In this document: positions 782 through 20,610 of the stretch, in pieces
Position numbering within the stretch: position 1 is the stretch's first letter
Layout of the letters: each line of letters starts with the position of its first letter
DNA from: an uncultured delta proteobacterium
GTDB lineage: Bacteria; Desulfobacterota; RBG-13-43-22
Length of the DNA stretch: 64,000 bases
Direction: 5' to 3'
NCBI GenBank assembly: GCA_963843145.1
Contig: CAWJJC010000027.1
Span: 1-64,000, forward strand
Program-made: the position numbers and the translations under genes
Notes under the pieces: model-generated
What the model saw: only the letters and a program-made list of their open reading frames with translations
The model's database searches: none
What the model was told of the DNA's origin: nothing

Positions 782-986
782 AATCCGCTGATTATTAAAC
801 TTCTTGATTGAAGACGGGGCATCTTCCGGGAATCAAGACCTAAAAAATATTATAAAAAATAAAGATTTGTTGCTATGGGAAAAAGAGGAATTTGATGTAC
901 TCCCCATTGTAGGACAAAAGACGATGTTGGATTGGATCTATTGCATTTCTTAATATCCTTGTCAAGCGGAAAGTTTTCATTTTGAG

Positions 987-1150
987 ACAACCAAAGACAA
1001 AAGACGATCTCTCACAGAGCCCACAGAGATCGCAGAGAATAAATAATTTTGAAAAATCGGCGTCTTAGCTATTTTTCAAAAAGTAAATTCGTCTTTCCCT
1101 GCGTCCTCGTCGGATTCGAGCGAAGCGGGCGAGAGATAAAAAGAACACCC
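987..1150 (+). repeat. Internally deleted copy of the ~390-bp MITE family
   Basis: Matches segments of 5944-6333 (aaagacgatctctcacagagcccacagagatcgcagag...cgagcgaagcgggcgagagataaaaagaac). Confidence 0.75.
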
Positions 1151-1176
1151 CACTCCTTCCGGCCGCAAAAGGGAAG

Positions 1177-1200
1177 GGGGACGTTGTTCACTCCATTCAG
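1177..1200 (+). repeat. RAYT-associated end motif GGGGACGTTGTTCACTCCATTCAG
   Basis: Variants at 5146, 10788, 20472; degenerate inverted copy overlaps the RAYT stop (gaatgaaatgaac, 2224-2236). Confidence 0.7.
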
Positions 1201-1242
1201 AAATATATTTACAGGAGAAGCCAAAGAGAGTAGTAAGGTCCT

Positions 1243-2229
1243 ATGCCAAGGCACGCCCGTTTAGATGTCCCCGGTACCCTGCACCATGTCATGGTCCGGG
1301 GGATCGAGGGGACCAATATCTTCCAGGATGAGGAAGATCGCCAGGCCTTCATTGATCGGATCAGGTCCCTGGTCCGGGAAACCGGGACCCGTATTCTGGC
1401 CTGGGCGCTAATGGACAATCACGTTCATTTGTTGTTGATCAGCGGACCAGCCGGGCTGCCGACTTTTATGCGGCGCTTGTTGACGGGGTATGCCGTCGGC
1501 TTTAATCGGAAGCATAGCCGATTCGGACACCTGTTCCAGAACCGTTATAAATCCATCTTATGTGAGCTGGATCCGTATCTGCTGGAGTTGGTCCGCTATA
1601 TTCACCTCAATCCCCTCCGGGCGGCGGTAGTCAAGGACCTGGAGGAATTGGAAAATTATGCCTGGTGCGGTCATGGGGCCTTGACCGGCCGGCAGAAGAA
1701 CGACTGGCAGGAAAAAGATTTTGTGCTCGGCTTTTTCGGGGGCAAAGAAAAGAAGGCCATTAAGGCTTACCGGGAATTCATGGAAGCGGGGAAAGATCTG
1801 GGTCCCAGGCCGGAGCTGGTCGGCGGCGGATTGATCCGCAGTCTGGGGGGCTGGTCGGCCGTATTGTCTCTCCGGCAACAAGGCGAAAGGGAGGCCTATG
1901 ATGAGCGGATCCTCGGGGGCGGCGATTTCGTCCAGGCGGTCCTGGAAGAGGCGGATCAAAAATTGGCCCGGCAAATTCGAGCCCGGGAAAAAACAGGGTC
2001 CTTGGCCCGAATCATTAAAGAACGCTGCCGGGAAGCCGGGGTCAATGAGCAGGAATTGAGATCCGGGAGCCGCCGCCGGGCCGTATCGGAACTTCGACGA
2101 AGCCTCTGTGTTTATTTATACCGGGAACTGGGGATCCCCCTGGCGGAGATCGCCCGGCAGGTGGGGGTGGGGACCAGCGGAGTGGCCATGGCGATTAAGG
2201 GGTTGGAAGCGGGAAATAAAAACGAATGA
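1243..2229 (+). CDS. RAYT-type Y1 HUH transposase with C-terminal HTH
   Basis: MPRHARLDVPGTLHHVMVRGIE start, HUH motif MDNHVHLL, GHLFQNRYKS, catalytic Tyr in VRYIHLNPLRA, C-terminal LAEIARQVGV. Confidence 0.9.
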   Translation: MPRHARLDVPGTLHHVMVRGIEGTNIFQDEEDRQAFIDRIRSLVRETGTRILAWALMDNHVHLLLISGPAGLPTFMRRLLTGYAVGFNRKHSRFGHLFQNRYKSILCELDPYLLELVRYIHLNPLRAAVVKDLEELENYAWCGHGALTGRQKNDWQEKDFVLGFFGGKEKKAIKAYREFMEAGKDLGPRPELVGGGLIRSLGGWSAVLSLRQQGEREAYDERILGGGDFVQAVLEEADQKLARQIRAREKTGSLARIIKERCREAGVNEQELRSGSRRRAVSELRRSLCVYLYRELGIPLAEIARQVGVGTSGVAMAIKGLEAGNKNE

Positions 2230-2415
2230 AATGAACCAAGGGCCGTTCATCTATACGGAAATCGGTTCAGACCAAGATCATCGAAGATTCAAAAAAGCAA
2301 TAAGGGGGGCAAAGGGTCTGTATGAATTTGAGGAGCCGTTTAAATCGTTAGCACGGGGATGGCTGCAGGAAGATCTTGAAACTAACAATAGATCCATGGA
2401 CAAGGAGCAAAATGT

Positions 2416-2664
2416 ATGAAAAGAAAAAAGTGTAATTTCTGCGGCAGCTTGGAATATGAGGACCTTAGGACCGAGTATCTTTATTCGTATAAAGGAAATT
2501 ATCTCCTTGTCCCCAACACCCCAGTCGAGGTTTGTTTGAATTGTGGTATGGTCTATTACGACGCCAAAGTGCTCAAAGAGATCGAAAGGCGGTTCTTTGC
2601 CATCCAGAAGAAAGAAGAAAAGCCAGACGCATATATTGAGCTGCCGCGGCTGGCTTTTGGTTAA
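2416..2664 (+). CDS. YgiT-type zinc-finger protein (MqsA-like antitoxin); only a 3' stub of the upstream toxin remains
   Basis: CNFCGS...PVEVCLNCGMVYY; GGAG RBS; overlaps stub ending ...WLQEDLET... Confidence 0.8.
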   Translation: MKRKKCNFCGSLEYEDLRTEYLYSYKGNYLLVPNTPVEVCLNCGMVYYDAKVLKEIERRFFAIQKKEEKPDAYIELPRLAFG

Positions 2665-2674
2665 TCAGATAATT

Positions 2675-2722
2675 TGCCTATTCCGCTCAAACTGACCACC
2701 GGTTCCGGATAAACTGACCATC
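2675..2722 (+). mobile_element. IS21-family terminal remnant
   Basis: TGCCTATTCCG then two copies of aaactgacca, resembling IS21 subterminal repeats. Confidence 0.5.
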
Positions 2723-2848
2723 CGATAAGAGGGGACGTAAGAGGGGACATCCTATAACGACCCTGTCAAGAGTGGAAAGTCCAGTTGACAATGATCTGAT
2801 TTAATGACAAAATTTTAAGAAAAAGCTTATTTTGAGGGAGCTTTAATC

Positions 2849-3058
2849 ATGCCTATTACCTTTCAAGAAGCATTGGATACGATCGAATCCTTGCCGGAAT
2901 ACCAGCAGGAAGACCTGATCGATATCATTCGTCGTAGATTAATTGAGCAAAAAAGGGACACCTTGGTCCTCCGTGTTCAGGAGGCCAGGGCCGAATACGC
3001 CCAGGGAAAGACAAAAGAAGGAACCGTGCAAGAGCTGTTGAGTGATCTCTCCCAATGA
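2849..3058 (+). CDS. Putative antitoxin
   Basis: 69 aa acidic helical protein overlapping the RelE-like toxin start (ATGA). Confidence 0.75.
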   Translation: MPITFQEALDTIESLPEYQQEDLIDIIRRRLIEQKRDTLVLRVQEARAEYAQGKTKEGTVQELLSDLSQ

Positions 3059-3339
3059 GAAAACTTATTTGGGGCAAGACCTTCATCCGGGCGGTAAAAC
3101 GGGCAAACCGCCGACACCCAGACCTGTTGGAGATTTTGCCAACCACGTTGCAGCTCTTATCCGAGGACCCCTTTGCCCCTCCATTAGAAACGCACAAACT
3201 TAAAGGGAAGTTGTCCGGTTCCTGGGCCTGTAAGGTGGGATACGACCTGCGTATTATTTTTGATTTTCTCAAAACCCAGGAGCAGGGGGAAGATCATATC
3301 TTACTTCTCGAACTTGGATCCCACGAGGAGGTTTATTAG
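3055..3339 (+). CDS. RelE/YafQ-family mRNA interferase toxin
   Basis: THKLKGKLSGSWACKVGYDLRIIF...LGSHEEVY. Confidence 0.9.
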   Translation: MRKLIWGKTFIRAVKRANRRHPDLLEILPTTLQLLSEDPFAPPLETHKLKGKLSGSWACKVGYDLRIIFDFLKTQEQGEDHILLLELGSHEEVY

Positions 3340-3379
3340 GAAAGAAAAGGGGTCACCCATTAAAAGGCCTCTGTCAAGA

Positions 3380-3802
3380 GAAAAGACAATCCCGGCTGCA
3401 AGAAAGAGCATTTTTTCTTACAGAGTCTGGACCTGATAGAACGATTCCCAGGCCCCCAACTCCTTTACCATTGCTGAAATTTCAAAGGTTGTGGTGTCAG
3501 CATTCTTCTTCACTGCACCGGTCACCCATCAGGATCAAGGTCATGGAAAGATATCGCGGGTACCAGTACACCGCTTTACAGTATTTCCTTAAGACCCCTT
3601 CCGCTATTAGCGGACCAGAAAATCTTCAGTACCAGACCGCGCCCAAAGGTTCAGTGACAAATCTCGTGGTTAAAGACCAACCCGTTACTGGTTCAGGGTC
3701 TGGGCAGTAAAAAACCTGGAAGCCTTTTGGGTGGAGCGGACGGCCAATCAAATCTCGTGGTTTTACCAACCCCAAATCAGGACTCGCCGCTCCAGCCAAC
3801 TC
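3380..3802 (-). ncRNA. Putative IS110 bridge/seek RNA
   Basis: Stem-enclosed loops at 3732-3794 (AGATTTGA and GGGGT, target match) and 3652-3690 (near copy); ATGGGTGA at 3522-3529 (donor match). Confidence 0.65.
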
Positions 3803-4822
3803 TTAGGCAAAGACCTTATCGGAATCAAAGGGTACTTGATCCCGCATCACAAAATAAGCCGCCCGGGCCAGTTTATGAGCCAGCGCGCTGTGGGCCACCA
3901 TGAAGTTGGTCTTCGTCGATTTCTTATTGTAGTAAGCCCTGGCCGGATTTTCGTAACGGCGAGCCAATTCAGCCGCCTCCGAGAAGGCCCAAGCCAGGTA
4001 TTTGTTGCCGTTCTTCTTATTCCCTTTCCCCTTGGTCTTTTGGTTGCTGGTCCATTGAGTCGGCACCTTCCGACAGTACGATACATAGTTGCCCACCCTG
4101 GTGAACCGTTCTATCGGACCCGTTTCCAGCATGATGGTCAGGGATAATATCTTGCCCACCCCGTCAATGGTTTGGAGGTATTTGTAGGGGGCCTTCAACT
4201 CCACCTTGTCTTCCACAAATTTTTCTACTTGTTTTATTTGCCGGGTCAGGAAGTCAATGGTCTCCTTGCTGACCCTCCCGCTCAACGCCAGGTCTTCATT
4301 CCCTTCCAAAATTGGAGACACCTCATCCTTTCTAAGCCGTTTCATCTTATTGGCGCTTAATTTTACCCCGCTATTCCGGCTGATAATATTCTGCAAACTG
4401 AGCAGAAGCGAGGTTCTCAGCCGGACGAGATGTCCTCTCTTTCTCAATAAGTCCCGGACCGGCCGCTCTTCTTTGGGATAGATAAAGCCCTCCGGTAAAA
4501 TTCCTAAGCGCAGCATCTCCGCCAGCCAAAAGGCATCATGTTGATCATCGGCGTGCTTTAACCCCGAATACTGTTCCATCGCCGCAGGATTGGCTAAATG
4601 CACCTGGTAGCCTGCACCCATCAACGTATCCACCAGCCAGTACCAGTTAAAGGTCGATTCGACGACGATACCCACCAACTCTTTCTGAAACGGCTTCAAA
4701 ACTTCCAAGATCACTTGGGGATCATTAGGAAGTCTTTTCTTGAATACCCTTTTCCCTTGCTTATTGATAATTCCCAAATAATTGTTGTTGCCATGGAGAT
4801 CAACTCCCGCATACACTTTCAT
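3803..4822 (-). CDS. IS110-family DEDD transposase/recombinase
   Basis: YAGVDLH, VVESTFNW, KHADDQHDA; C-terminal GVGKIL...PTQWTS and KNGNKYLAWAF. Confidence 0.93.
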   Translation of the reverse strand: MKVYAGVDLHGNNNYLGIINKQGKRVFKKRLPNDPQVILEVLKPFQKELVGIVVESTFNWYWLVDTLMGAGYQVHLANPAAMEQYSGLKHADDQHDAFWLAEMLRLGILPEGFIYPKEERPVRDLLRKRGHLVRLRTSLLLSLQNIISRNSGVKLSANKMKRLRKDEVSPILEGNEDLALSGRVSKETIDFLTRQIKQVEKFVEDKVELKAPYKYLQTIDGVGKILSLTIMLETGPIERFTRVGNYVSYCRKVPTQWTSNQKTKGKGNKKNGNKYLAWAFSEAAELARRYENPARAYYNKKSTKTNFMVAHSALAHKLARAAYFVMRDQVPFDSDKVFA

Positions 4823-5336
4823 AAGGCACCTCCTAGGGTTTGATTGATGCGCTTTCCCTAAGCATACCAGGATTAACTTTCTCTTGGTATCTGCGAGGTG
4901 CCTTTTATATGATTATCAAATCTTTAATGTTGACAATTAGGTTTCAATTTGGGGAGACCGGGACGTTGGTGCGCAGAGTTCTCAAAAAAGAGAAGCCAAG
5001 GGTGTGAGGAGGGAATCGATAGTATACGGGAAGGTTACTTCACCGCTTCCTTGGCGAAAACGCCGGGCATAACGAGGCATTTGCCCCTTAAGAAATCGGT
5101 AACGGAACGTTATCTAAAGGAAACTAAAGGGCTTTTAAAATAAAAGGGTACGTTGTTCACTTCATTCAGTAAGTCTCTGGGCTTTTTGGCCTATAAGGGG
5201 GCGGGATCGGGAGAAAGACTTTTTTTTTACGCGGATGGACACGGATACTGCTCATTTCTCAAGAAATCGGGCATTCGATTTCTATCAATAACAGAAAAGT
5301 CTTGATTTTAGACATGTAACTGTATATAGTCACATT

Positions 5337-5558
5337 ATGACCCAACGGGAAAAGCTTTTAGCCCGAGCCATGAGCAACCCGAAGGATCTTTCCTTCGGTG
5401 AATTTCAAACACTTTTACGCCAGGCGGGATGGACCTTCGATCACCAAAAAGGGAGCCATCAAATTTGGTACTCCCCGACCCGGTATCGACTCTCTATTCA
5501 GGAAGGCCGGAGCGGGAAAGCCAAGGGCTATCAGGTCGAGCAATTCCTGGGGCAATAG
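5337..5558 (+). CDS. hicA: HicA-family toxin (possibly with premature TAG)
   Basis: GWTFDHQKGSHQIWY...KAKGYQVEQF; frame continues EVENEKA after the TAG. Confidence 0.85.
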   Translation: MTQREKLLARAMSNPKDLSFGEFQTLLRQAGWTFDHQKGSHQIWYSPTRYRLSIQEGRSGKAKGYQVEQFLGQ

Positions 5559-5568
5559 GAGGTTGAAA

Positions 5569-5913
5569 ATGAAAAAGCCTGATCGGTTCGACGGATATAC
5601 CGTCAATGTGTTTTTGGATGAGGATGGGGAATATCTGGCTCATTTTGTTGAGTTGCCAAACGTATCCGCCTTTGGGGAATCGCCGGAAGAGGCGCTAAGC
5701 GAGCTGACCACGGCCTGGGAAGGCGTGAAGGAAAGTTACAAAAAGCACGAAGAACAGGTTCCTGTGGCACCGGCGAGAAAGAAATACAGTGGTCAATTCA
5801 ACGTTCGACTCGATCGGCGGATACACCGCGCCCTGGCCATTGAGGCGGCCAAAGCCGGTATATCCTTAAATGCCATCGTCTCGCAGAAGCTGGCCAAAAA
5901 CACTCCGGCATAG
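5569..5913 (+). CDS. hicB: HicB-family antitoxin
   Basis: AFGESPEEAL...YSGQFNVRLDRRIHRALAIEA...SLN; GGAGG RBS before ATG 5569. Confidence 0.9.
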   Translation: MKKPDRFDGYTVNVFLDEDGEYLAHFVELPNVSAFGESPEEALSELTTAWEGVKESYKKHEEQVPVAPARKKYSGQFNVRLDRRIHRALAIEAAKAGISLNAIVSQKLAKNTPA

Positions 5914-5943: not shown

Positions 5944-6333
5944 TATTAACGGTCTCAAAATAATATTGACAGGGTTCCTTAACGTCGCCAGTAACAACCA
6001 AAGACAAAAGACGATCTCTCACAGAGCCCACAGAGATCGCAGAGAATAAATAATTTTTGATTGCCGCTGAGGGGCCGGCAATCAAAAAAAGTCTCCCGCC
6101 CCACTAAAAAAGGGTATTGGCCGTAGGCCTTCAGGAAATGTTTCATGGCCGAAGGCCTTTAGCGGCTAGGAAACATTTCCTCGCCGGAGGCGTGAGTTGT
6201 TTTGAAAAATCGGCGTCTCAGCGATTTTTCAAAAAAGAGATTCGTCTTTCTCTGCGCCCTCTGCGAACTCGAGCGAAGCGGGCGAGAGATAAAAAGAACA
6301 CCCAGTGCAAATACAATTATGAGACTGTTAATA
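5944..6333 (+). mobile_element. MITE with TIR TATTAACGGTCTCA / TGAGACTGTTAATA and internal palindromes
   Basis: Related copies at 987, 20015 and 34107-36440; same TIR at 21691-21853. Confidence 0.7.
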
Positions 6334-6827: not shown

Positions 6828-7631
6828 TTACCCTTCGAGATTTTTCACCTTGAGGACCATGTCGGCGGTAACGGTGCGTTTCTCAGCGAAGAGGGCATAG
6901 GTGAGGGCCGCTTCGGTGACGGCGCCGATTTTCCGGGGGATGCCGAAGCTGACCTCATGGACGGCCCGGAGGGCCTGCTCGTCGAGGAGCGGTTCCCGGG
7001 CGCCGGCCAGTTGGAGGTGATGAGCCACATAGTTTTTGGTTTCTTCGGGTTGGAGACCGGGGAGATGGTAGCGGATGGCAATCCGCTGCTGGAAGGGCTC
7101 CATGACGGCAAAGTCCATGATCCTTCTCAGGTCGGACTGGCCGGAGAGGATGAGGATAAAGGGGTCATAGGAGTCCATTTTGAAGTTGGTCAGGAGCCGG
7201 AGTTCTTCCAGGGGGCCGGTTTGGAGGAGATGGGCCTCGTCGATGATCAGGAGGATGGTTTTTCCGGCCTGCTCTTTGGAGTCCAGGAGGGTTTTCTGGA
7301 TCTGGAGGTAGATGGCGCTTTTGGAGAGTCGGGTGGGCAGGCCCAGGAGCCGGTTGAGATGATACAAGAGATCGGCCCGGCTGAGGGTGGACAGGGGGGT
7401 GTAGATGGGTCGGAAGAGGTTTTCATTGAGCCGGTCCACATAGGCCCGCAGGGCCAGGGTTTTGCCTACCCCGGGATCGCCGGTGAGCAGCAGGATGCCG
7501 CCCCGACGCTTGATATATTCCAGACGGGCGAAGCACTCTTTCAACGGTTCCGTTTCGAAGAGGTCCTGGGTTTTCAGGTTCTTGTCGAAGGGGAAACGCT
7601 TGAGGCCGAACCAGGCCAGGAGATCTTTCAT
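6828..7631 (-). CDS. ExeA-like AAA ATPase (transposition helper)
   Basis: Walker A GDPGVGKT, Walker B IIDEAH, GIPRKI. Confidence 0.9.
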   Translation of the reverse strand: MKDLLAWFGLKRFPFDKNLKTQDLFETEPLKECFARLEYIKRRGGILLLTGDPGVGKTLALRAYVDRLNENLFRPIYTPLSTLSRADLLYHLNRLLGLPTRLSKSAIYLQIQKTLLDSKEQAGKTILLIIDEAHLLQTGPLEELRLLTNFKMDSYDPFILILSGQSDLRRIMDFAVMEPFQQRIAIRYHLPGLQPEETKNYVAHHLQLAGAREPLLDEQALRAVHEVSFGIPRKIGAVTEAALTYALFAEKRTVTADMVLKVKNLEG

Positions 7632-8885
7632 GACCGGACCTTTTTCTTATGGAAGGAGAGCTGGGTGTTGACCTGCTGGGGCCGGAAGGTGCGGGCATTT
7701 TCCCTTTTGTCGAGGAGCTTGATCCGGCCCACTCGCACCCCGTTATCGTAGAGGTAAAGCTCCTGGGGATCATCCACCGGATGACGGAGCTCGATCTTCT
7801 GGCGGATATAGGCGGCCGGCACTTCATAGAGAGCGCCTTTGAAGCTGATGGTGGCGTCATTATTGACCACCCGCTCGTGACGGACGAGGAAGATCTCATC
7901 CAGTTCGGCCTTGGAGAGCCGGCGGATCTCTACCCGGGCGACCGCGGACTGGTAACGGTCCATCGGGCTTTCCCCGAGGCCGCTATGGAGTTTGTGGTGG
8001 TAATCCTCCTGGAGCCAGAGCCAGAAGGCCTGGTTGAGTTCGGCCAGGCTGATCCCGGCCTGGATCCCGGCCAGGAAGCGGTCCCTGACCGTGCGGAAGA
8101 ATCGTTCCACCTTGCCGCGGGAGGGACTGTCGTAGGGTTTGGAGTGGATCAGGGAGATGCCGGCCAGGGCGCAGCTTTTGGCCAGCAAGTCCGAGGAAAA
8201 GGTGGGGCCGTTATCGAAATAGAGGCGCTTGGGGAGACCGTAACTCAGGAAGGCGTCCTTGAGGACGGGGGTCAGGGCGCTGATGGTCTCGGAGGCGTTG
8301 AAGGCCTGGCCCACCACCAGACGGGAGTGATCGTCGATAATCGCGCACAAGATGGCCTTGTGGGAGCGGTTGCCGGCCCGGACCTGGGGGCCGTGGAGGA
8401 AGTCGCCGATCCATAAATCATTGACCTGTTCCACCTCGAAGGCCTTGCGGACATCGGTGCGTTGTCTGCACCGGGAGCCAGCCCTTCATTTTAACCAGGC
8501 GCAGGACCGTATTGTAGTGGACGGGGGGATCGCCCAGGAGATGCAATTCCCCCAGCGTTTCATAAAGTTTCTGGACCGAGTAGTGGGGGTAGGCCTTGGC
8601 TTGGACCTCGATCGCCATTTGTAAGGAATCCTCCAGACGCCGGGGTCGGCCGCCGTCGGAGCGCTTCCGGGGTTTAAGGGCCTCAAAGCCCTGCCGACGG
8701 TATTTGCGGAGCCAGGTCTTCAGGGTGGAGACGCGGATCTTCCTGACCCCGTACCGGGGAAAGGTCAATTCCTGCCCGGCCTGTTTCCGGAAGTAGTCGT
8801 TCTGGGCCCGGGCCGGTTCGGCCAATACGGGGGAGATGATCTGATAACGTTTGAGGGCGATTTTTTCTCGGATGTCTTCTTCCAT
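7628..8885 (-). pseudogene. DDE integrase-core transposase with Mu-type C-terminus, frameshifted near 8430-8460
   Basis: Two ORFs: HTH N-terminus, then LWIGDFLHG, IIDDHSR, YFDNG, GKVERFFRTV. Confidence 0.85.
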
Positions 8886-9111
8886 GGGTTGTTCCTCCTA
8901 AGAGTTTTTTTTGGGGTTTGTACCCCGTTCGTGAACCCAGGAATAACCCATTCTGTTCCCGGCCGTTAGCAAGGTTGTGTAAAACCATTTCCCGAAACCG
9001 GGTGCTGGATTGTTGATGGGGGGGTGGTTGGAGCAACGGGAGAGATAGACCGGCCGAAACCAGATCCCTTTAGGGGTTGGTTCGGGGGCGCCGGGGGTCG
9101 GTTGGACCTGT

Positions 9112-10223: not shown

Positions 10224-10232
10224 GAGGGATTA

Positions 10233-10784: not shown

Positions 10785-10787
10785 TGT

Positions 10788-11435: not shown

Positions 11436-12974
11436 CCTGAATGTTGCATAAAAAAATGGCCTTTTGGGGAAAGGTCGGCTAGGCCGCTTCCTTGAACGCA
11501 TCCAGTAATTGGGTAAAATCCCTTTGGACGGCCTCATTGGCACTCAGGGTAAGCGTCAATTTCCCTTTGGGAGTCGTTAAGCGACCGGCTCTTTGAATAA
11601 TGAGGTGTCGCAAGGTCTTTAATTCCTCAAAGCACCAGAGCGGGGATCTTTTTTCGGTCGTTCCTCGATCCTGGAGGCGGGCCACCATTTGAATTTCCCG
11701 GGTCAAATTATGAGCCAGGATCGCAGCCAGGTTATAGAACTGGTTGCCGCCCAGGCGCCGAACGGGGATGTAATCCATCTGAGCCTGGGACTTTAGTTCG
11801 CCAAAGAGGCCTTCTTGGTCGGCGCGACCGTTGTGGAACATTAAGACTTTCTTGGCCTTGACCCGTTTGTTAGTGACGATAGCTTTGAAAGCATAGCCCT
11901 CTTCGTGGGGCTCGAACAGATCCAGTTGGATCGGGCCGCGGAAAACCAGGGGAACGCGTTGGCGAATCAGCAGGAAACGAAATCGACTGTCCCATTTTTT
12001 GGGTTTCCAGAAGGTTTCAAACCAAGACCAGCGAGCGTCCATCCGTTTCCAGCGTTTTCGTTCCTGGATCAGGTGCTTCAACTCGGTAAAGCGTTCAAAG
12101 GGCACCGACAGGCTGAACTCGACTCCCCGGGCTTCCAACAGAGTCACAATCTCATCGTTAAAGAAGGCGCTGTCCAGGCGGGCTTCGATGGTTACGCCGG
12201 GCAAAGCCTCCTGGAGGACCTGGAGACATTGGGTAATAAACGCTTTGGCCCCGTTGGAGTCATGCACATTGCCGGGCCGGAACAAGACATCCAACACCTG
12301 GCCGGTTTGAGCGATGGTGCAGAACAAGGGGTAGTAGCCGCGGGCTCCCTTTTTTTTCTTGTTGTAGCCTACGGCGGTCCCTTCAGCCCGACGCTGGGTG
12401 GTCCAGATCACCGATCCGTCGAAATCCAGGGTCAACCGGGCCGGGGATAATTTCTGTAAACGTTGGATCACCAGATCGCGAACGAGAGCGCGCACCTTGT
12501 CAATCGCCACTTGATCCACGCTCCGTAACGCTCGGGACACGGTGGAAACATCCGGCAGACGCTGGAGTCCCAGCAACCGTTTTACCAGGGGATCATCCTG
12601 GTAATAATCCAGGTCTCGGAGTTTGCGATAGCCCATAATCAGGTGCACAACCAACAGCAGCATGATGACTTGGTGACCAAAGATCTCAGAAACCTTCAAC
12701 TGCGTAAAACACTTTTTGAGCCTTTCTTTGAGTCGTAATTGCTGAAAGACCGGTTGATAGATGACGAGTCCGGCAAATGAGGTCAATCGTTGATCTTCGA
12801 ACTTGATTTCGGGAATTTTAAACACTCGACTGAAAATATGCTTTTTGCTAAACTTCACCTGGGGTGGCCTCCTGATTTGGGTTTTGTAAGACGTGGTAAT
12901 CTCACAATAGCCAATAAGGACGCCACCTTCAACTGTTTTTAGACCAAATAAGCCATTTTTTTATGCAACTACGG
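11436..12974 (-). mobile_element. IS1380-family element
   Basis: Imperfect TIRs CC..GTTGCATAAAAAAATGGC at both ends. Confidence 0.85.
11479..12858 (-). CDS. IS1380-family transposase
   Basis: LTLDFDGS, GYYPLF, RPGNVHDS, RLDSAFF, FHNGRADQEGLFGELK. Confidence 0.9.
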   Translation of the reverse strand: MKFSKKHIFSRVFKIPEIKFEDQRLTSFAGLVIYQPVFQQLRLKERLKKCFTQLKVSEIFGHQVIMLLLVVHLIMGYRKLRDLDYYQDDPLVKRLLGLQRLPDVSTVSRALRSVDQVAIDKVRALVRDLVIQRLQKLSPARLTLDFDGSVIWTTQRRAEGTAVGYNKKKKGARGYYPLFCTIAQTGQVLDVLFRPGNVHDSNGAKAFITQCLQVLQEALPGVTIEARLDSAFFNDEIVTLLEARGVEFSLSVPFERFTELKHLIQERKRWKRMDARWSWFETFWKPKKWDSRFRFLLIRQRVPLVFRGPIQLDLFEPHEEGYAFKAIVTNKRVKAKKVLMFHNGRADQEGLFGELKSQAQMDYIPVRRLGGNQFYNLAAILAHNLTREIQMVARLQDRGTTEKRSPLWCFEELKTLRHLIIQRAGRLTTPKGKLTLTLSANEAVQRDFTQLLDAFKEAA

Positions 12975-13250
12975 AAGTCGGGTCTCGTGATTGAAATTGC
13001 CAAGGCTGTGCGTAATCTTGGTTTATCGCAAGAGGAAGCTGGTCGCCGTATGGGGCTGCCTCAACCAAAACTATCCGGCCTGTTCCGTGGGGATTTTTCC
13101 AACGTATCTGAGCGCAAATTGATGGATTGTTTAAACCGGTTAGGTTACGATATTGAGATCAAGGTTAAGCCTTCAGCCGAACGGGTTGGGCAACTGTTGC
13201 TGGCTGTAGCCTGAATTGGGAGGCAGCTCCCGCAATTTGCGGACGATTTG

Positions 13251-13350
13251 CGTAGTTTCTGAGTAAACTTAGCAGAAGGTATTTCCACTCCAAGACCAAA
13301 GCGGTAAAACCCCTCCGGCCGCGGCCACCCCCTCCGCCAAATTCAATTAT
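13251..13350 (+). repeat. ~100-bp direct repeat (second copy 16521-16613)
   Basis: cgtagtttctgagt...aaaacccctccggccgcggccaccccctccgccaaattcaatta. Confidence 0.8.
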
Positions 13351-13384
13351 GTACTTGACAACATAATGTATTGAAAGACATAAT

Positions 13385-13562
13385 ATGACCAGGCAGTGGA
13401 TAGTTCTGTTTCATGAGGATTTCGAACCGGAGTTTGATGCCTTGCCGGAAGAAGTGCAGGATGAATTGCTGGCTCATGCCAAATTACTCGGACATTGCAA
13501 AAGCCGACGAACGATTTGACAGCCACCTGGCCGGTTTGAAAGAAAGGAAGCCTAAACCATGA
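13385..13562 (+). pseudogene. RelE/HigB-like toxin with central deletion
   Basis: MTRQWIVLFHEDFEPEFDALPEEVQDELLAHAKLL joined out of frame to IAKADERFDSHL. Confidence 0.75.
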
Positions 13563-13885
13563 AGACCATAAACCAGAAGGTGAAAAGCCTTAGCACCAGG
13601 CGTCGGAAGAAGATCGAGGCCCGCGTCGCTGCTCTCATGGGGGAGGAGATGACCCTTCAGGAACTTCGACGAGCGCGTAAGATCACTCAGGTCCGCCTGG
13701 CAAAAGCCCTCGGCATCAGCCAGGACGGCGTATCCCGTCTCGAAAAGCGAAGTGACCTTCTGCTTTCGACCATGAGAAAGAGCGTCGAGGCCATGGGAGG
13801 CAACCTGTCCCTCGTCGCTGAATTTCCCGATCGGAAGCCGGTCATTCTTTCCGGGATTGCTACCGTAGAGCCAGATCCCGCCTAA
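13559..13885 (+). CDS. XRE-HTH antitoxin
   Basis: LQELRRARKITQVRLAKALGISQDGVSRLEKRSDLLLST. Confidence 0.9.
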   Translation: MKTINQKVKSLSTRRRKKIEARVAALMGEEMTLQELRRARKITQVRLAKALGISQDGVSRLEKRSDLLLSTMRKSVEAMGGNLSLVAEFPDRKPVILSGIATVEPDPA

Positions 13886-13915: not shown

Positions 13916-14506
13916 AATTGGAAAATTATGCCTGGTGCGGTCATGGGGCCTTGACCGGCCGGCAGAAGAACGACTGGCAGGAAAAAGATTTTGTGCTCGG
14001 CTTTTTCGGGGGCAAAGAAAAGAAGGCCATTAAGGCTTACCGGGAATTCATGGAAGCGGGGAAAGATCTGGGTCCCAGGCCGGAGCTGGTCGGCGGCGGA
14101 TTGATCCGCAGTCTGGGGGGCTGGTCGGCCGTATTGTCTCTCCGGCAACAAGGCGAAAGGGCGGCCTATGATGAGCGGATCCTCGGGGGCGGCGATTTCG
14201 TCCAGGCGGTCCTGGAAGAGGCGGATCAAAAATTGGCCCGGCAAATTCGAGCCCGGGAAAAAACAGGGTCCTTGGCCCGAATCATTAAAGAACGCTGCCG
14301 GGAAGCCGGGGTCAATGAGCAGGAATTGAGATCCGGGAGCCGCCGCCGGGCCGTATCGGAACTTCGACGAAGCCTCGGTGTTTATTTATACCGGAAACTG
14401 GGGATCCCCCTGGCGGAGATCGCCCGGCAGGTGGGGGTGGGGACCAGCGGAGTGGCCATGGCGATTAAGGGGTTGGAAGCGGGAAACAAAAACGAATGAA
14501 ATGAAC
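13916..14506 (+). pseudogene. 5'-truncated near-identical copy of the RAYT gene
   Basis: Nearly identical to ~1647-2237; lacks HUH and catalytic Tyr. Confidence 0.9.
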
Positions 14507-14701
14507 AAAGGCCAGTAAAGGGGCTGAATTCGGGCTTATATGGCCCTTTTTTTTGGGGGGGGGCAAAAGCTGGGTTTGGGCATTCCAACGGCAAGAGGAG
14601 CCAACCGCCATTACCTGCCGGGCCAGATTTGGCACATCACCCATCATTAAGCAAGAGTATTTTTGGTTCGCCTATCAACGGGAATATGATAGAATTTCTT
14701 T

Positions 14702-15094
14702 ATGAATAAATCTGTGGAGAATTGGTTAAGATCAAGCGATTACGACTGGAAGACAGCTTCAGCCTTATATAAAAGTGGACGGTATCTTTATGTGATTTTT
14801 ATGTGCCACCTTTCCGTTGAAAAGGCGCTCAAGGCCTTGGTTAATTTAAGGACAGGACAGATTCCACCGAAAACACATGACTTAAGGGTTCTGGCCCGGT
14901 TGACGGGAATGAATATCCCAGAGGAATATGGTATGCTTATCAGTCGACTGAACGAGGTGAGCATCCCTACCCGGTATCCCGAAGATATCAAACGGCTGGT
15001 CAAACAGTACAAGAAATCGGTAACGGAACGTTATCTAAAGGAAACTAAAGGGCTTTTAAAATGGATAAAGAAAAACGAGACGTTAAGCGAATAG
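14702..15094 (+). CDS. HEPN-domain protein
   Basis: FMCHLSVEKALKA, PPKTHDL, TRYP. Confidence 0.9.
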   Translation: MNKSVENWLRSSDYDWKTASALYKSGRYLYVIFMCHLSVEKALKALVNLRTGQIPPKTHDLRVLARLTGMNIPEEYGMLISRLNEVSIPTRYPEDIKRLVKQYKKSVTERYLKETKGLLKWIKKNETLSE

Positions 15095-15393
15095 TCGATG
15101 AACTACTGGTTCGGTTATCGTCAAAAGGTATTGAAATAAATAAACTGATCCTCTTCGGTTCCAGGGTAAGAGCAGAAACCGGTCCATTCAGCGATTGGGA
15201 TGTCGCAGTTGTATCAAAAAGCTTCAATCGGATCGGATTACTGCGACGGCAAGAGTTGCTCGGAGAAGCTATTTGGCAGATGACGTATCCTGTTGAAATC
15301 CTCGGGTATAGCTTAAGAGAATATGAGAGCGCTTCTCGTGGATCCTTTCTTTCTACTATACGGGCATCCGGGCAAATAGTTTATGAAAACTAA
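15061..15393 (+). CDS. Minimal nucleotidyltransferase (HEPN partner)
   Basis: LFGSRVRAE...SDWDVAVVS. Confidence 0.9.
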   Translation: MDKEKRDVKRIVDELLVRLSSKGIEINKLILFGSRVRAETGPFSDWDVAVVSKSFNRIGLLRRQELLGEAIWQMTYPVEILGYSLREYESASRGSFLSTIRASGQIVYEN

Positions 15394-16032
15394 ATATCGT
15401 TTTATTGAACGCATCTCCCCGGAAAAAAAGGTTCAAGAGTCCGAGTAAAGGGGACCTTCTTGAATTAGTTGACTTCTGGGACAAAGACTTTTTTGGCACG
15501 GATTTCACGGATGGGCACGGTTAAAACCATTCATTTCTCAAGAAATCGGGCACTCGATTTCCTGAGACCGGCTGCCGCCGGGGGCGCGTAAAGGGGGACA
15601 TCCTATATTCTTCCTGTCAAGAGGAAATATTTCATTTTGAGAAAGATAACGATTTTGATGGCATAGGAATTGGGCCATTTTTTGACCGCACCTCCCCTGT
15701 AGGGCTGACGGATGGGTGAGAGGGAAGAAGGAAGCGATTAGCTACACTTGGGTCGAAAGAGGGAAGATGAAGCGATTAGCTGCACTTGGGTCAGATGGAA
15801 GATGGAAGAGTGAAGATGGAAGAAAAAACCGAATACCCACCATTCAACCACGTCTTGTCCTTTTAAGTTTATTTTTGCCATGAAAAAGGGGTCAGAACTT
15901 TAAAATTGACAAAAGTGAAAAGGGGGAGACCGAGCAGAAAATCATTTATGGGCGAGACAATTGATTGAGGGATCCCGCGAAGTGGAAAGTACTGTTGAAT
16001 TTTCCCGATGTTAAGTACCCGAAGGAAGGCCC

Positions 16033-16302: not shown

Positions 16303-16654
16303 ATGTCCTCCTGTTTCTTAAAAAATTGAGCTAATTCTACCATATTACGCAGAAAAGGGGAAGAAAAGGGTTAATGTGCCCCTCCGGGGTCAGGTCATTA
16401 AAATTAACAAAACCGAAAAGGACAAAGGGTTCGAGGAAAGATAGCTCATCATATTGGGACCGGGTCGGGCCCAATGCCCTTAACTTATCGGTAAATCCCC
16501 TCCACCCTCAGCCTATAATACGTAGTTTCTGAGTGAACTTAGCCGATTTCCACTCAAGGACCAAAGAGGTAAAACCCCTCCGGCCGCGGCCACCCCCTCC
16601 GCCAAATTCAATTAGACAGGATAAACAGGGTGGATGGAAATCAGGAAACCAGCG

Positions 16655-16790: not shown

Positions 16791-16988
16791 TAATTTGTCA
16801 AAAGACCTTTCAGGTCAGCGAACAGGCGAACCAGGCCAGGGCCTGTCAATTCCCACTCATGGATTAAACCGGGAATATCTTTCCACGCGTATTTACCTTC
16901 CCGCTATACCCCAGGCCAAGTCCCTTTACCGATTTCCACTCAAAGACAAAATCGGTAAATTACCACTCCCTCCGATATTAGTAATGGA

Positions 16989-17079
16989 GGCCGTTGGTGC
17001 AGAAAGTTCTTGAGGATAAAGACGAGCTGTGCGAGAAGTGAACTATGCCGCGATTAGCCCGGTTAGAGGCTCCGGTGTT
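16989..17079 (+). pseudogene. 5' end of a second RAYT family (MPRLARLEAP), cut by IS3
   Basis: Same leader and start at 19012-19067 and 20302-20438. Confidence 0.8.
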
Positions 17080-18358
17080 TGGCGATGGACCCCAGTACTT
17101 GGACAGCCTGAGCATGGGTCTAAGCTCTAAGTCTTGTTTTAGTAAAGGCCTCAGGCGGCCTGAATCACTGGAGCAGTTAAGCCCATATATACCTCATCCG
17201 GGGTTAGGATATCAAACGTTTGGTGGGGGCGTTCCTGGTTGTAGAACTGGAACCACCACTCCAGTCCGGCACGCAGGGCGGCGCCGTTGTCAAAACTGTG
17301 CAAATACAGGTACTGATACTTGGTGCTCCACCAGAGCCGTTCGATAAAGATGTTGTCCTGACGCGGCCACGGCCATCCATGCTGATGCGGATCTGGTGTT
17401 GTTTTAATAAGTCGGTAAAGGCCTGGCTGGTAAATTGGGCGCCCTGATCGGTGTTGAAGATCTCGGGAGTCCCATAGAGGCGAATCGCCTCTTCGAGCGC
17501 CTCCAGACAGAAATCGGTGTCCAGGGTATTGGAAAGCTTCAAGGAAAGCACTTTACGACTATACCAGTCCATGACCGCCACCAGGTACATAAAACCCCGG
17601 GCCATGGGGATGTAGGTGATATCCGAAGTCCAGACCTGGTTGGGACGGTCAATGGTCAGGTTTCGAGCAGATAGGGGTAGATTTGATGGTCCGGATGAGG
17701 CCGGCTGGTCTTCGGCTTGGGATAAATAGCTTCAAGGCCCATCAGGCGCATAAGCCGCTGGATACGTTTCCGGTTAACGTGATAGCCTAGCCTGTGCAAA
17801 TGGAGCCTCATGGAGCGGGATCCGTAGAAAGGCGTCTTCAGATATTGCTCGTCGATCCAGCGCATCAGGTCAAGATCCTGAGGAGCCGTATGGCCAGCGG
17901 TTTATAATACACCGTCGATCGGTTGAGGTTTAATAACCGGCACTGACGGGAAGCGCTCATCCTGGGGATCTTGACAGTCGATCATCTGCTTGCGCTGTTG
18001 TCGGCTTAGAGACTGAGCTTTTTGGACAAAAAATCGTTTTCCACCTTTAGCTGTCCGATCTGGCGATAGAGTTCATCCACCTGAGCTTCATGTTCCTTCT
18101 TGGTTTTCTGGCCTTTATCGAACAACTCGGTCGCCCCTTCGATCAGCGCTCGCTTCCAGTTGTTGATCATGGTGGGGTGAACTCCGAATCTGGCGGCAAG
18201 TTCGGAGACGCTCTCCTCGTTTTTCAGGGCCGCTAACGCTACTTTTGCTTTGAATTCCGGAGGGTGTTGTTGCCGTTTCGTTTCTTAATCATGGTTAGCT
18301 CCTTTCTTGGGGCTGACTCAGAGCTTAGCACATTGTCCAGTTTTTGGGGACCACCTCA
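17080..18358 (-). mobile_element. IS3-family element; orfA and orfB frameshifted
   Basis: TIRs TGAGGTGGTCCCCAAAAACTGGACA / TGGCGATGGACCCCAGTACTTGGACA; EFKAKVALAAL, PFYGSR, MDWYSRKVLS, FNTDQGAQFTS. Confidence 0.88.
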
Positions 18359-18718
18359 CTGCACCGCTTGGGAAAAGTGTTTTATGATCCGCTGAATATG
18401 CTGGGGTGAAATATCTGATTGGTCAAGTTTTGAGTAAATTGTTACCAGGATAAGATGGTGAGATGTCTTCTGCCAGTAGATTAACCGGTATCCCGAACTC
18501 TTCCCTTTCTTAATATCACTGTTCCTGGCTCTGGACTTAAAAAGGGTATAGGCAGAACCTTTTACTTGATTTCCGATTAACGCACCTGTTTGAAGCTGGT
18601 TGATAAGGGGTTGGATATCTGACCGGATATGGCGGTACTTTTTAACCAGCGCACGCAAATTCCTTTTGAATTCGGAAGTGTAATCAATATAGATAACCGA
18701 GTTAGAGTTACCCGTCAT
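18356..18718 (-). CDS. RelE/HigB-like toxin (stop codon supplied by IS3 end)
   Basis: EFKRNLRAL...RNSDIKKGKSSGYRLIY...VTIYSKLDQSDIS. Confidence 0.85.
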   Translation of the reverse strand: MTGNSNSVIYIDYTSEFKRNLRALVKKYRHIRSDIQPLINQLQTGALIGNQVKGSAYTLFKSRARNSDIKKGKSSGYRLIYWQKTSHHLILVTIYSKLDQSDISPQHIQRIIKHFSQAVQ

Positions 18719-18926
18719 CAATCCCATCCCATAAATTTGATACTGGATGAGTTTCCCCCATTAGACTTTCTTTCCATCCCTGGCGGAAACTTTCTTCGGC
18801 CGAATTCAGGGTGACGCTTTGCCGGAAAAGACGAACGATTTGAATCAGATTAGGCAAATATTCCTCGGGAATGTTTTTAATTTCAAAAGCCAGCTTTTTT
18901 TTAAAAAGCGGCAATTGGCCTTCCAT
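18708..18926 (-). CDS. Putative antitoxin
   Basis: IPEEYLPNLIQIVRLFRQS...FRQGWKE...LWDGID; GGAGG RBS; overlaps toxin. Confidence 0.75.
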   Translation of the reverse strand: MEGQLPLFKKKLAFEIKNIPEEYLPNLIQIVRLFRQSVTLNSAEESFRQGWKESLMGETHPVSNLWDGIDDG

Positions 18927-19440
18927 AATTAATCCTCCCAATCTTTATATTTTATACTTTTGTTATTTTACATCTATTTTTTGAAATTTGAACCAAAAAA
19001 GTAAAGTAGGTGAGTGAACTATGCCGCGATTAGCCCGGTTAGAGGCTCCCGGTGTTCTGCACCAGGTTTAGACGGGGGTCGGACCCAATGCCGTTAACTT
19101 AACAGAAAGAGCCTGTTTTTGCTATCTTTAATGGTTTCGGGAGCCAGGGGCCAGGGCTGGGGAACGGGGTATTTACGAGGACGTCCCCGACGACGTTTTT
19201 CCAAACCCCGACTTTTTCGGCGATATTCCTGTCGATCCCGAGTGAACTGACGGCCCGGTTTTATAGACACGCGGTGCCGGGCACAGGATTTTATGAAGAC
19301 TTCCCAGAGAGGTCCGAGTAGCTTTTCCGAAGAGGAAAAGGGCCTTAAACTAACCTTTTTCCGCCTCAAAAGAGGCTTTTAAGGATGGGCGTCTTATCGA
19401 CTCACCTCCTCTATCCGTAGACGGGGGTCGGATCAGGAGA

Positions 19441-19740
19441 TCAGGGTGTTAAATCAGCGAGAAGAAGCCGGAATTGGTCATAAACGTCCCGCCGGTGGCC
19501 GACATAATAGACATGAATCACCTCATGGTCGTCATCAACGGAGTAGATGATCCGGAATCTCCTGGGTATGAAGGATTTGAATTCGGCGAGCTCGTCCTGT
19601 AGATCATCTCCGGCATAGGGCTCCTGCCGAAGTTCGTCCAGGGCCTCTCTTATGATCCTCTTGTTATCGGGATGTAGCCGGGAGATACATCCCGCCGCCT
19701 CCGGCGTGAAACGGAGCCGGCGAGAATACCCGTGGCTCAT
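19441..19740 (-). CDS. RelE/ParE-family toxin, no adjacent antitoxin
   Basis: RRFRIIYSVD...YVGHRRDVYDQF. Confidence 0.8.
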   Translation of the reverse strand: MSHGYSRRLRFTPEAAGCISRLHPDNKRIIREALDELRQEPYAGDDLQDELAEFKSFIPRRFRIIYSVDDDHEVIHVYYVGHRRDVYDQFRLLLADLTP

Positions 19741-20014
19741 AGCCACATCGAGATTCGAGAATCTGTGTTCGATGTTTGACGTTCGTTTATTCTCAAGGGA
19801 AACCCAATTTCGAATTGATCCGCCACGACCTGACCCAGTCCGTTTTCCTCGAGGTGGATGAGATCTACAACTTGGCCTGCCCGGCCTCCCCAATCCATTA
19901 TCAAGTGAGGTGGCTCGCTACCTGGGGGTGACCACTTCCTGCACCAATCGGGTGGTGGGAAGGGGGCGAAAAGATGGGAATAATGAAAGGATGGAAGATT
20001 GGGGTAGGGTGGGT

Positions 20015-20304
20015 TATTAACGGTCTCAAAATAATATTGACAGGATTCCTTAACGCCGCTAAGTCACAATCAAAGAAAAAAGACGATCTCTCACAGAGCG
20101 CACAGAGATCGCAGAGAAATATAATTTTTGATTGCCGCTGAGGGGCCGGCAATCAAAAAAAGATCTCCCGGTCCGCGAATAAGACCCCGCCGGAGGCGTG
20201 AGTTGTTTCGAAAAATCGGCGTCTCAGCGATTTTTCAAAAACTACTTGGTCTTTCTCTGCGCCCTCGGCGAACTCGAGCGAAGCGGGCGAGCGATAAAAA
20301 GAAC
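20015..20304 (+). repeat. MITE copy whose right end is replaced by the RAYT2 leader
   Basis: Collinear with 5944-6300. Confidence 0.75.
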
Positions 20305-20438
20305 GTTGGGGCAGAAAGTTCTTGAGGATAAAGACGAGCTGTGCGAGAAGTGAACTATGCCGCGATTAGCCCGGTTAGAGGCTCCCGGTGTTCTGCACCA
20401 GGTCATCGGCCGGGGGATTGAACGACGAAAGATATTTC
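20302..20438 (+). pseudogene. RAYT2 leader and first ~27 codons
   Basis: MPRLARLEAPGVLHQVIGRGIERRKIF, then junction to a RelE tail snippet. Confidence 0.8.
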
Positions 20439-20610
20439 ATTGGATCCCACGAGGAGGTTTATTAGAAAATGGCGGAACGTTGTCTACTCCATTCAGTGTT
20501 TACCCTTCACCCGCTACGCTCGAGAGCGCTCTCCCGCAGGATGACCCCCTTCAGCGCAAATCCGATATTTCCCTGGCTAGGGGGAATCAAAAAAAGTTTA
20601 ATAATATCAA

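Follow-up and report, generated by a model that had tools for sequence, protein, structure and literature searches.

What are the short GGGGAC/GGGGTC-type motifs that recur among toxin-antitoxin (TA) genes at one end of a contig from an uncultured delta proteobacterium (Desulfobacterota, RBG-13-43-22)? The window analysed here comprises the first 64 kb of contig CAWJJC010000027.1 (C27) in assembly GCA_963843145.1 (genome G000; 5.35 Mb in 32 contigs, 97.9% complete, 6.89% contamination; other C-numbers denote contigs of the same genome). The motifs lie within approximately positions 1-20600, hereafter the island, which makes up 0.39% of the genome and is cut on its left side, as position 1 is the contig end. 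A first-pass annotation had listed 19 motif positions, ascribed them to the ends of genes of the type found in repetitive extragenic palindromic (REP)-associated tyrosine transposases (RAYTs), and proposed an integron-like platform in which a Y1 HUH transposase captures and shuffles TA cassettes. Our analysis revealed that the motifs are the outermost parts of terminal inverted repeats (TIRs) that belong to TIRYT elements, that these TIRs are locally enriched and share one orientation, and that insertion sequences (ISs), IS110-family elements among them, have cut several of these TIRs. The island is probably the result of accretion and decay of mobile DNA beside a tRNA-Arg gene. Nothing shows the motifs acting as an integron-like gene-capture system.

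The TIRYT gene and its terminal inverted repeats

The island contains one intact TIRYT gene and five gene fragments, at 4960-~5030, 13916-14511, 16988-17079, 19013-19067 and 20300-20440, all other copies being fragmentary, together with TIRs that are attached to these genes or stand alone (solo TIRs):

1177-1200, + strand: A-type left TIR GGGGACGTTGTTCACTCCATTCAG, 42 bp 5' of the TIRYT start, 2 mismatches to the pattern from locus L016
1243-2229, + strand: intact TIRYT gene of 328 aa, Y1/HUH transposase with a C-terminal DnaA_C-type helix-turn-helix (HTH) (Pfam, NCBIfam)
2222-2245, - strand: degenerate right TIR overlapping the TIRYT stop codon (our reading of the alignments)
2731-2772, + strand: tandem TIR tips (GGGGACGTAAGA, then GGGGAC) and ~24 bp of an IS110-a end
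4960-~5030, + strand: E''-type left TIR GGGACGTTGGTGCGCAG..., its leader degenerate, at the second junction of IS110-b (end approximate, our reading)
5146-5169, + strand: solo A-type TIR, 2 mismatches to a pattern from outside the island
10786-10809, + strand: solo A-type TIR with the diverged tip GTGGGACATCTTCACTCCATTCAG, 1 bp past the stop codon of a HicB-like gene
13916-14513, + strand: second TIRYT copy, reduced to a 3' fragment (99.2% identity with 1646-2241); its right TIR occupies 14493-14513, - strand
15450-15473, + strand: diverged A-like solo TIR (TIR homology is our reading)
15582-15710, + strand: TIR tips and a 125-bp IS110-a end remnant (15586-15710)
15888-15910, + strand: solo C-type TIR GGGGTCAGAACTTTAAAATTGAC, 5 mismatches to the TIR of locus L041, resembling the left end of a TIRYT at C22:479700
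16386-16408, + strand: solo C-type TIR, 4 mismatches to the pattern taken from 15888 and hence not independent
16988-17079, + strand: E-type left TIR and TIRYT 5' fragment, followed by an IS3-family element (rve open reading frame (ORF) 17204-17605, - strand)
19013-19067, + strand: 55-bp patch of an E-type TIRYT 5' end, 100% identical to 20349-20403
20300-20440, + strand: E-type left TIR and TIRYT 5' fragment, tip replaced by the end of a MITE-like element (MITE being short for miniature inverted-repeat transposable element)
20472-20496, + strand: solo A-type TIR, 114 bp from the tRNA gene

The protein encoded at 1243-2229 matched Pfam Y1_Tnp with 38.3 bits (1.7e-9; cut-off 23, exceeded) and, over residues 256-319, Bac_DnaA_C with 29.4 bits (E=8.3e-7; cut-off 31.5, narrowly missed), as well as HTH_23 (0.0023) and the NCBIfam family REP_Tyr_transpos (1.1e-16; 61 bits, under the equivalog cut-off of 80); a look-up by sequence in a structure database returned no match. 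Homologues of the gene were found in 16 of 19 genomes (E<=1e-20), and histidine (H) 60, H62 and tyrosine (Y) 119 are kept in at least 23 of 24 full-length homologues, in agreement with the intact Y1 HUH transposase of the first-pass annotation.

The A-type TIR flanks orthologous genes on both sides in relatives, with GGGGACGTTGTTCAYTTNATTCA upstream and TGAATNAAGTGAACAACGTCCCC downstream, and the intact paralogues at C12:95484, C15:55467 and C15:62299 carry GGGACGTTGGTTCTAaATTGCAT on the left and its reverse complement on the right. These repeats on both sides of intact paralogues and orthologues bear out the earlier assignment of the motifs to RAYT-type gene ends of several subfamilies. Other TIRYT clades in relatives display GGGGACGTTCGTGCAGA..., GGGGACGTAGTTTCTGAATAAAC... 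or GGGGTCAGGTC.../GGGGTCAAATC... ends. In at least 12 of 32 TIRYT loci an automatic search picked up an inverted pair of 15-28 nt, located 29-50 bp 5' of the ATG, and these pairs start with GGG(G)AC or GGGGTC or, in the case of C15a, directly behind a GGG tip. A TTGACA box directly follows the left repeat in relatives; the promoter scan gave no site for the TIRYT of the window, and the box is read from relatives only. At the right end of the window copy, ~15 of 24 positions at 2222-2245 correspond to the reverse complement of the left TIR (our reading); at <=3 mismatches this right TIR is not detected, and orthologues in loci L017 and L036 retain ...GAACAACGT(T)CCC at the right-TIR position.

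TIRYT genes, or TIRtrons when taken with their repeats, have been described as RAYT-like genes flanked by TIRs that share the tip GGGGWSAS, with single, dimeric and grouped TIR copies (PMC3733652; Di Nocera, De Gregorio and Rocco 2013), and most TIRYTs are assigned to TnpA(REP) subclass 2.1 with Bac_DnaA_C, HTH_23 or HTH_28 extensions (PMC6006769; Quentin et al. 2018). A TIRtron in this sense combines a Y1/HUH gene and a DnaA_C-type HTH with inverted repeats of 16-28 bp. Judged by its Y1 catalytic motifs, by its HTH extension and by the TIRs that its paralogues and orthologues carry, the unit belongs to this kind, known since 2013; the window's own copy falls short in one feature, the right TIR, which is degenerate. 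It shares with the TIRtrons in the available text of these papers the Y1/HUH domain with a Bac_DnaA_C-type HTH, tips that fit or nearly fit GGGGWSAS, and low-copy families of TIRs that stand singly, in pairs or in groups. The C-type tip GGGGTCAG fits this consensus at 8/8 positions and GGGGACAT at 7/8, whereas the A-type tip GGGGACGT fits at 6/8 only.

Two other identities were tried and rejected. A REPtron (RAYT with REP/REPIN) likewise has a domesticated-looking Y1 gene flanked by inverted dispersed repeats that lie mostly downstream of genes; however, the repeats here are not GTAG-tagged hairpins, form no palindrome and occur in tens rather than hundreds of copies, the flanks being non-palindromic TIRs with 10 A-type copies in G000. 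An IS200/IS605 element does not fit either, as transpos_IS200 scored E=0.0058 and 16.9 bits against a cut-off of 55, and the protein has 328 aa with an HTH and is accompanied by TIRs.

Comparison of the listed positions resolved five repeat families. The A family (GGGGACGTTGTTCACTCCATTCAG) is found at 1177, 5146, 10786 and 20472 with a diverged copy at 15450, the E family (ACGTTGGTGCAGAAAGTTCT...) at 4960, 16988 and 20300, the C family (GGGGTCAG...TTGAC) at 15888 and 16386, the B family (GGGGACATCCTATA...CTGTCAAGAG) at 2743 and 15593 (the sequence at 3349 being related), and the D family (GACGGGGGTCGGACCCAATGCCGTTAAC) at 16456, 19069 and 19417. Fourteen of the 19 positions (1177, 2731, 2743, 3349, 4960, 5146, 10788, 15450, 15593, 15888, 16386, 16989, 20302 and 20472) are TIRs or TIR tips, three of which (2743, 3349, 15593) consist of a TIR tip joined to an IS110-family end. 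The three D-family positions are ends of a separate dispersed repeat, and the positions 816 and 10680 lost their support, since no repeat membership was found for them and 10680 lies inside a HicB-like coding sequence.

The 24-mer at 1177 was found again at 5146 with 2 mismatches (0 expected) and, more diverged, at ~10783-10786 and 20470. Past the TIR at 15450, the next ~110 bp (15478-15561) share 76% identity with the sequence that follows the TIR at 5146. Altogether ~8 solo left-type TIRs or tips of at least three subfamilies lie in the island. The A-type TIR is present in 21 of 21 genomes of the family in 2-35 copies (reversed-pattern control 0-2). The sequence to the left of GTTG varies among TIRs (GGGGAC, GGTAC, GGAAC, GGCC, GAAC), and the inverted-repeat search found no palindrome at TIR positions. 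A second small cluster with three A-type TIRs is located at C10:247000-255000 (L042). There, a gene at 3617-5147 of the locus stops 5 bp short of a TIR tip and A-type TIR; its 500-aa product has a beta-helix and a domain of the Toll/interleukin-receptor type, and a DUF4160/DUF2442 pair adjoins the gene.

Density and orientation of the TIRs

The bare hexamer GGGGWC, taken as the marker in the first-pass annotation, is not enriched in the island (1.650/kb in 1-20600 versus 1.499/kb genome-wide and 1.567/kb over the remaining window), and its strand distribution is 23+/11- (two-sided p=0.058). The longer GGGGWSAS occurs 11 times (10+/1-), which ranks the bin 15th of 257 20-kb bins. The real signal lies in the longer repeats, not in the hexamer: TIR-like sequences are 20- to 60-fold denser in the island than genome-wide. 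In one comparison TIR patterns were taken only from elements outside the island, and the reversed genome served as the null. With <=4 mismatches, 3 of 31 genome matches fell into the island (P=2.4e-4; null 1) and those elsewhere were 15+/13-; with <=5 mismatches, 5 of 66 did (P=6.3e-6; null 12), and those elsewhere were 27+/34-. All island matches were on the + strand at both thresholds. Addition of island-derived patterns gave 8 of 38 matches in the island, a count that is partly circular. A genome-wide check of the kind called for earlier thus upheld local enrichment and polarity for the TIRs, but not enrichment of the hexamer.

Left-type copies are co-oriented throughout (5/5 with external patterns, ~11/11 with all patterns), and the internal duplications of the island are all direct. 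The claim that all motifs point the same way holds for these left-type copies; right TIRs lie on the - strand at 14493-14513 and, in degenerate form, at ~2222-2245. Insertion of IS608 is strand-specific. A replication-strand rule for the polarity was considered and rejected: outside the island, TIRYT genes are located on the G-rich strand in 3 and on the C-rich strand in 6 cases, and solo TIRs in 10 and 11 cases, respectively.

IS110-family elements at the TIR tip

Contrary to the view that the Y1 enzyme is the only one tied to the motifs, an intact IS110 transposase gene lies between two of them:

3349-4958, - strand: TIR tip GGGGTC (3349-3354), then IS110-b (~3355-4958) with its transposase at 3803-4822 (- strand)

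The transposase matched DEDD_Tnp_IS110 (PF01548, 8.1e-16) and Transposase_20 (PF02371, 1.9e-13), and IS110-b has an end sequence in common with C3:9953-10159. The flanks of the element read GGGGTC and GGGAC/GTTGGTGCG, which makes positions 3349 and 4960 its two junctions. Judged from these flanks, an E''-type left TIR would have stood within ~10 bp downstream of the YafQ stop codon before the insertion.

A second element, IS110-a, is present in three full copies (C15:60470-62240, C15:65060-63278 and C12:249884-248107). One end of the copies lies after ...AATA(T/G)GGGAC and the other end before GTTGGTTCTAGATTGCAT, and each full copy abuts an A2-type TIR without its tip, the tip being found at the opposite end of the IS. 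The flanks therefore rebuild the A2-type TIR AATATGGGAC/GTTGGTTCTAGATTGCAT, which is one base from the right TIR of C12:95484. At C15:52000-67000 (L044, ~8480-13060 of the locus) two inverted 1.78-kb IS110-a copies with a 426-aa transposase sit in both TIRs of one TIRtron and form a palindromic composite, which accounts for a 165-bp 'TIR' in the automatic inverted-pair search. Because the flanks of the composite rebuild an intact TIR, IS110-a appears to be aimed at the TIR tip GGGAC/GTTGG. The window contains IS110-a remnants only (~24 bp at 2749-2772 and 125 bp at 15586-15710); end remnants after a GGGGAC tip are found at 2743, 15593, C25:~37630 and C10:~252120.

IS110 elements that insert into REP sequences (ISPpu9, ISPpu10, IS621) are on record in the available literature, and the likeness consists in an element with a DEDD transposase at a fixed place inside a short repeat of a Y1-transposase system. 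Those elements target the REP hairpin, whereas the target here is the tip of a TIRYT TIR, and guide pairing is putative. Recombinases of this bridge-RNA type could in principle have shaped the island themselves, if recombination or abortive insertion at the TIR tip left hybrid tips, deletions and patches behind. The position of the intact IS110-b between the GGGGTC tip at 3349 and the GGGAC/GTTGG TIR at 4960, the rebuilt TIRs at the three full IS110-a copies, the end remnants at four places, the variable sequence to the left of GTTG and the recorded REP-inserting members are in line with this idea. The full IS110-a copies do not, however, represent three independent events, as one TIRtron has two of them at its flanks and the copy in C12 has the appearance of a segmental duplicate, and no recombination product was observed. 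A search for a bridge-RNA guide in the 448-nt 3' non-coding end of IS110-b revealed one 8-mer and several 6-mers, about the level of chance by our own estimate, and no Rfam match. We consider it very improbable that IS110 recombination is the main author of the mosaic.

The island beside tRNA-Arg and its TA modules

Positions 1-20600 form the right-hand portion of a variable island that adjoins a tRNA-Arg gene:

20611-20686, - strand: tRNA-Arg(TCT), right boundary of the variable region (comparison with relatives, Rfam)

In the sister species G002 the island is absent at tRNA-Arg, and ABC-transporter genes directly flank the tRNA gene; their G000 counterparts are at C28:775580-781736. Alignments with two further relatives, G003 and G018, also diverge ~22-31 bp past the tRNA-Arg 3' end. 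Since the divergence is placed there in all three relatives, it is the tRNA flank, not the TIR at 20472, that defines where the variable region ends on the right; this breakpoint between genomes does not fall at a motif, where the earlier proposal had placed such breakpoints. The G+C content to the left of the tRNA is ~45-50%, except for 56-59% at 6-10 kb where a transposon is located, and mostly 52-61% in the rest of the window. The Rfam scan detected the tRNA only, plus a below-threshold match on its opposite strand. No direct repeats of tRNA fragments, as left by tandem integration at a tRNA, were found, the tRNA matching other tRNA genes only. As the tRNA-Arg neighbours of G002 lie near the end of C28 in G000 (L011, C28:780900-786170), the full island may exceed 25 kb and span a contig gap. 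Behind the ABC genes, L011 contains a Phd-like ORF, repeats rich in AAACGAAA and genes resembling those for polysaccharide synthesis (ORF and gene assignments are our reading). Just right of the tRNA, a dispersed repeat at 20797-20970 has 64 genome matches, and a second one at 21684-21855 is found in G000, G001, G002 and G003 at 78-96% identity.

Pfam and NCBIfam confirmed the TA gene content as first described, with ~9 modules with domain support and two short TA patches:

2416-2664, + strand: MqsA/YokU-like antitoxin (Pfam)
2849-3339, + strand: TA operon of a 69-aa ORF (no family match) and a YafQ toxin (3055-3339), promoter-like site at 2785-2813
5090-5141, + strand: 52-bp patch of a HEPN 3' end and MNT start, 100% identical to 15011-15062
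5337-5913, + strand: HicA (5337-5558) and HicB (5569-5913) (Pfam)
10233-10784, + strand: HicB-like antitoxin (under the gathering score)
12963-13885, + strand: two XRE-type antitoxins, 12963-13214 (XRE/HTH_37) and 13559-13885 (XRE)
14702-15393, + strand: HEPN (14702-15094) and MNT (15061-15393)
18356-18941, - strand: RelE-like (18356-18727, weak) and RelN-like (18708-18941, under the cut-off)
19441-19893, - strand: ParE-type toxin
20444-20466, + strand: 23-bp patch corresponding to the YafQ 3' end, with GGATCCCACGAGGAGGTTTATTAG at both places (our reading)

A homologue search with the YafQ cassette matched 5 of 21 genomes, and all matches except the window itself have 31-42% identity.

In the reading that we consider likely, that of accretion and decay, TIRtrons and single TIRs would have entered repeatedly, in a REP-like manner, into short intergenic spaces downstream of genes, and they would later have been truncated as ISs inserted, DNA was deleted and nearby stretches were duplicated directly. 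The TA modules would be passengers or stabilisers of a permissive region rather than cargo captured by the Y1 enzyme. The shared polarity may reflect local history and possibly also repeated insertion beside existing tips, which tandem tips such as GGGGACGTAAGAGGGGAC suggest. REPs are reported to lie mostly just downstream of coding regions (PMC3733652, available text), a position that TIR tips near ORF ends also fit, and breakpoints at the outer TIR edge are what the ends of mobile elements look like.

Several observations weigh against this account. The common polarity of the left-type TIRs follows no genome-wide rule. A pure 'junkyard' predicts neither that six TIR tips are found 1-66 bp past the end of a + strand ORF or patch nor that homology breakpoints often coincide with the outer TIR edge, as is the case here. 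Random decay of TIRtrons should also leave right-type solo TIRs, of which none was seen in the island, only two right TIRs attached to gene 3' ends. Furthermore, the copies are partly non-independent, since 16988, 20300 and 19013 are near-identical duplicates and 5146 and 15450 have common downstream sequence.

Some of these features would also be expected if the Y1 enzyme cleaved and joined single-stranded DNA at its own end motifs and so captured, excised and reordered TA cassettes, with TIRs as attC analogues. Its gene is intact with conserved HUH and Tyr residues, the TIRs are enriched and co-oriented, and the six tips follow + strand ORF ends; moreover, the TIRs behind the two YafQ 3' ends belong to different subfamilies (3349/4960 versus 20472), and the HEPN patch stops 4 bp before a TIR. 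Cassettes and sites do not alternate regularly, however: the TIR-TIR intervals 15450-15582-15888-16386 are gene-free, whereas no TIR separates the modules at 11132-13885 or those at 18356-19893. The only intact element has a degenerate right TIR, cassettes on the - strand misfit a polar site, and TA operons carry promoter-like sites of their own according to the promoter scan. The 100 ORFs next to 27 TIRtron loci of relatives gave family matches mostly to ordinary genes, and TA-like neighbours are few (DUF433 twice, DUF4160, HicA and UPF0175, among 25 of 65 families shown), and solo TIRs elsewhere in G000 adjoin non-TA genes. In addition, the interspecies breakpoint lies beyond the tRNA 3' end and not at a TIR, and the available text of PMC3733652 and PMC6006769 gives biochemical tests of TIRYTs as future work and reports none. 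Capture and shuffling of TA cassettes by the Y1 enzyme is unsupported, and we regard it as quite improbable.

An integron shares with the island a TA-rich array of small cassettes and a short recurrent site of one polarity near many 3' ends; it differs in its IntI integrase, its folded attC site and its regular spacing, while the sites here are transposon ends. An integron remnant, that is an attC cluster without integrase, could be envisaged because the cassettes are small and mostly co-oriented and an integrase could lie past the contig end. The search with TIGR02249 gave 20 matches in G000, the best with 86.2 bits against a cut-off of 265 and none above it, and a general inverted-repeat search, not based on an attC model, revealed no recurring imperfect palindrome at cassette ends among 21 inverted pairs. 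The absence of IntI and attC noted before therefore holds for the assembled sequence of an array that is cut on the left by the contig end, and the recurrent sites are TIRYT TIRs. On these grounds an integron identity was rejected, and we give the remnant practically no credence.

Exact patches of 52, 55 and 23 bp (5090-5141, 19013-19067, 20444-20466) are wedged between unrelated segments and are either footprints of illegitimate recombination or assembler joins at shared words. Part of the mosaic could be a misassembly at short exact repeats of 42-64 bp, as flanks with no relation to each other meet at identical stretches of 52, 55, 64 and 42 bp (5090-5141, 19013-19067, 987-1050, 6050-6091) in a genome of 32 contigs with 6.89% contamination. 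Read data came from Logan contigs of four other metagenomes, in which circles, rare variants and spanning pairs are invisible; the best run contains 0.22 of the sampled words, and small shares and uncovered parts were not counted as evidence. One contig of run X9 has an alternative left context at 5150, whereas X9 contigs without differences cross two motif junctions (2679-3082 and 5112-5366). The TIRs, IS junctions and TA genes are each internally coherent, and the identity of the TIRs is independent of segment order. Misassembly is compatible with accretion and decay, and we hold it to be unlikely.

Four DDE/DEDD elements, absent from the first-pass annotation, are present in the island (IS110, AAA_22 with rve/Mu-C, IS4-like and IS3-type). 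Apart from those given above, the mobile elements and dispersed repeats are:

5944-6303, + strand: MITE-like element of ~360 bp, partial copies at 987-1150 and 20015-20308
6828-8885, - strand: AAA_22 ATPase gene and frameshifted rve/Mu-C transposase gene (Pfam)
11433-12974, - strand: IS4-like insertion with a DDE_Tnp_1_4 transposase (11479-12858), interrupting a TA operon
19066-19430, + strand: dispersed D repeat with ends GACGGGGGTCGGA, a further end at 16456-16486

The MITE-like element contains CACAGAGCCCACAGAGATCGCAGAGAA and two 13-bp hairpins, and its pieces match 27-35 genome places on both strands; the copy at C28:781229-781536 is an insertion relative to G002. The rve/Mu-C gene is split into two frames (8434-8466), and contigs of three other runs are without one base at 8464 or 8466, so that the window copy either carries a frameshift or contains a wrongly assembled base. 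Contigs of all four runs show the site empty of the IS4-like element (joint 11432/11433 to 12975), and the TA operon that this element cuts consists of a Gp49/HigB-like ORF (our reading, no Pfam match) and an XRE antitoxin. The D repeat has 22 genome matches, several as inverted pairs ~170-220 bp apart; its GACGGGGGTCGGACCCAATGCCGTTAAC ends form REPIN-like doublets, for example at C6:140345/140558 and C20:638270/638437, and the window copy is bracketed by the 15-bp direct repeat TAGACGGGGGTCGGA. At 15690-15830, three tandem units of ~36-38 bp are arranged around GGAAGCGATTAGCTRCA, and the related AGATGGAAGATGGAAG... occurs at >20 genome places.

The new part of these findings is modest. In comparison with the described TIRtrons, many co-oriented left-type TIRs of several subfamilies are grouped densely in 20 kb amid TA modules, although published TIR lists may already include these types, and IS110 elements sit at one fixed point of the TIR tip. 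It is unlikely that the TIR tips are live recombination sites, used by the Y1 enzyme, by IS110 recombinases or by both, that reorder TA modules. If they were, the co-oriented run would let the island excise, reinsert and reorder TA modules as a cassette exchanger free of attC and of a tyrosine integrase, and recombination between co-oriented tips would be a new route to cassette arrays, which the present evidence does not show. The formerly mysterious motif can now be named as a TIRYT end, and TIRYTs form a little-studied branch within the RAYT/IS200 superfamily. The island assembles such ends naturally in a small space, with at least three subfamilies represented by intact, truncated and solo copies, and is a convenient start for asking whether TIRYTs cut their TIRs and whether bridge-type recombinases aim at them.

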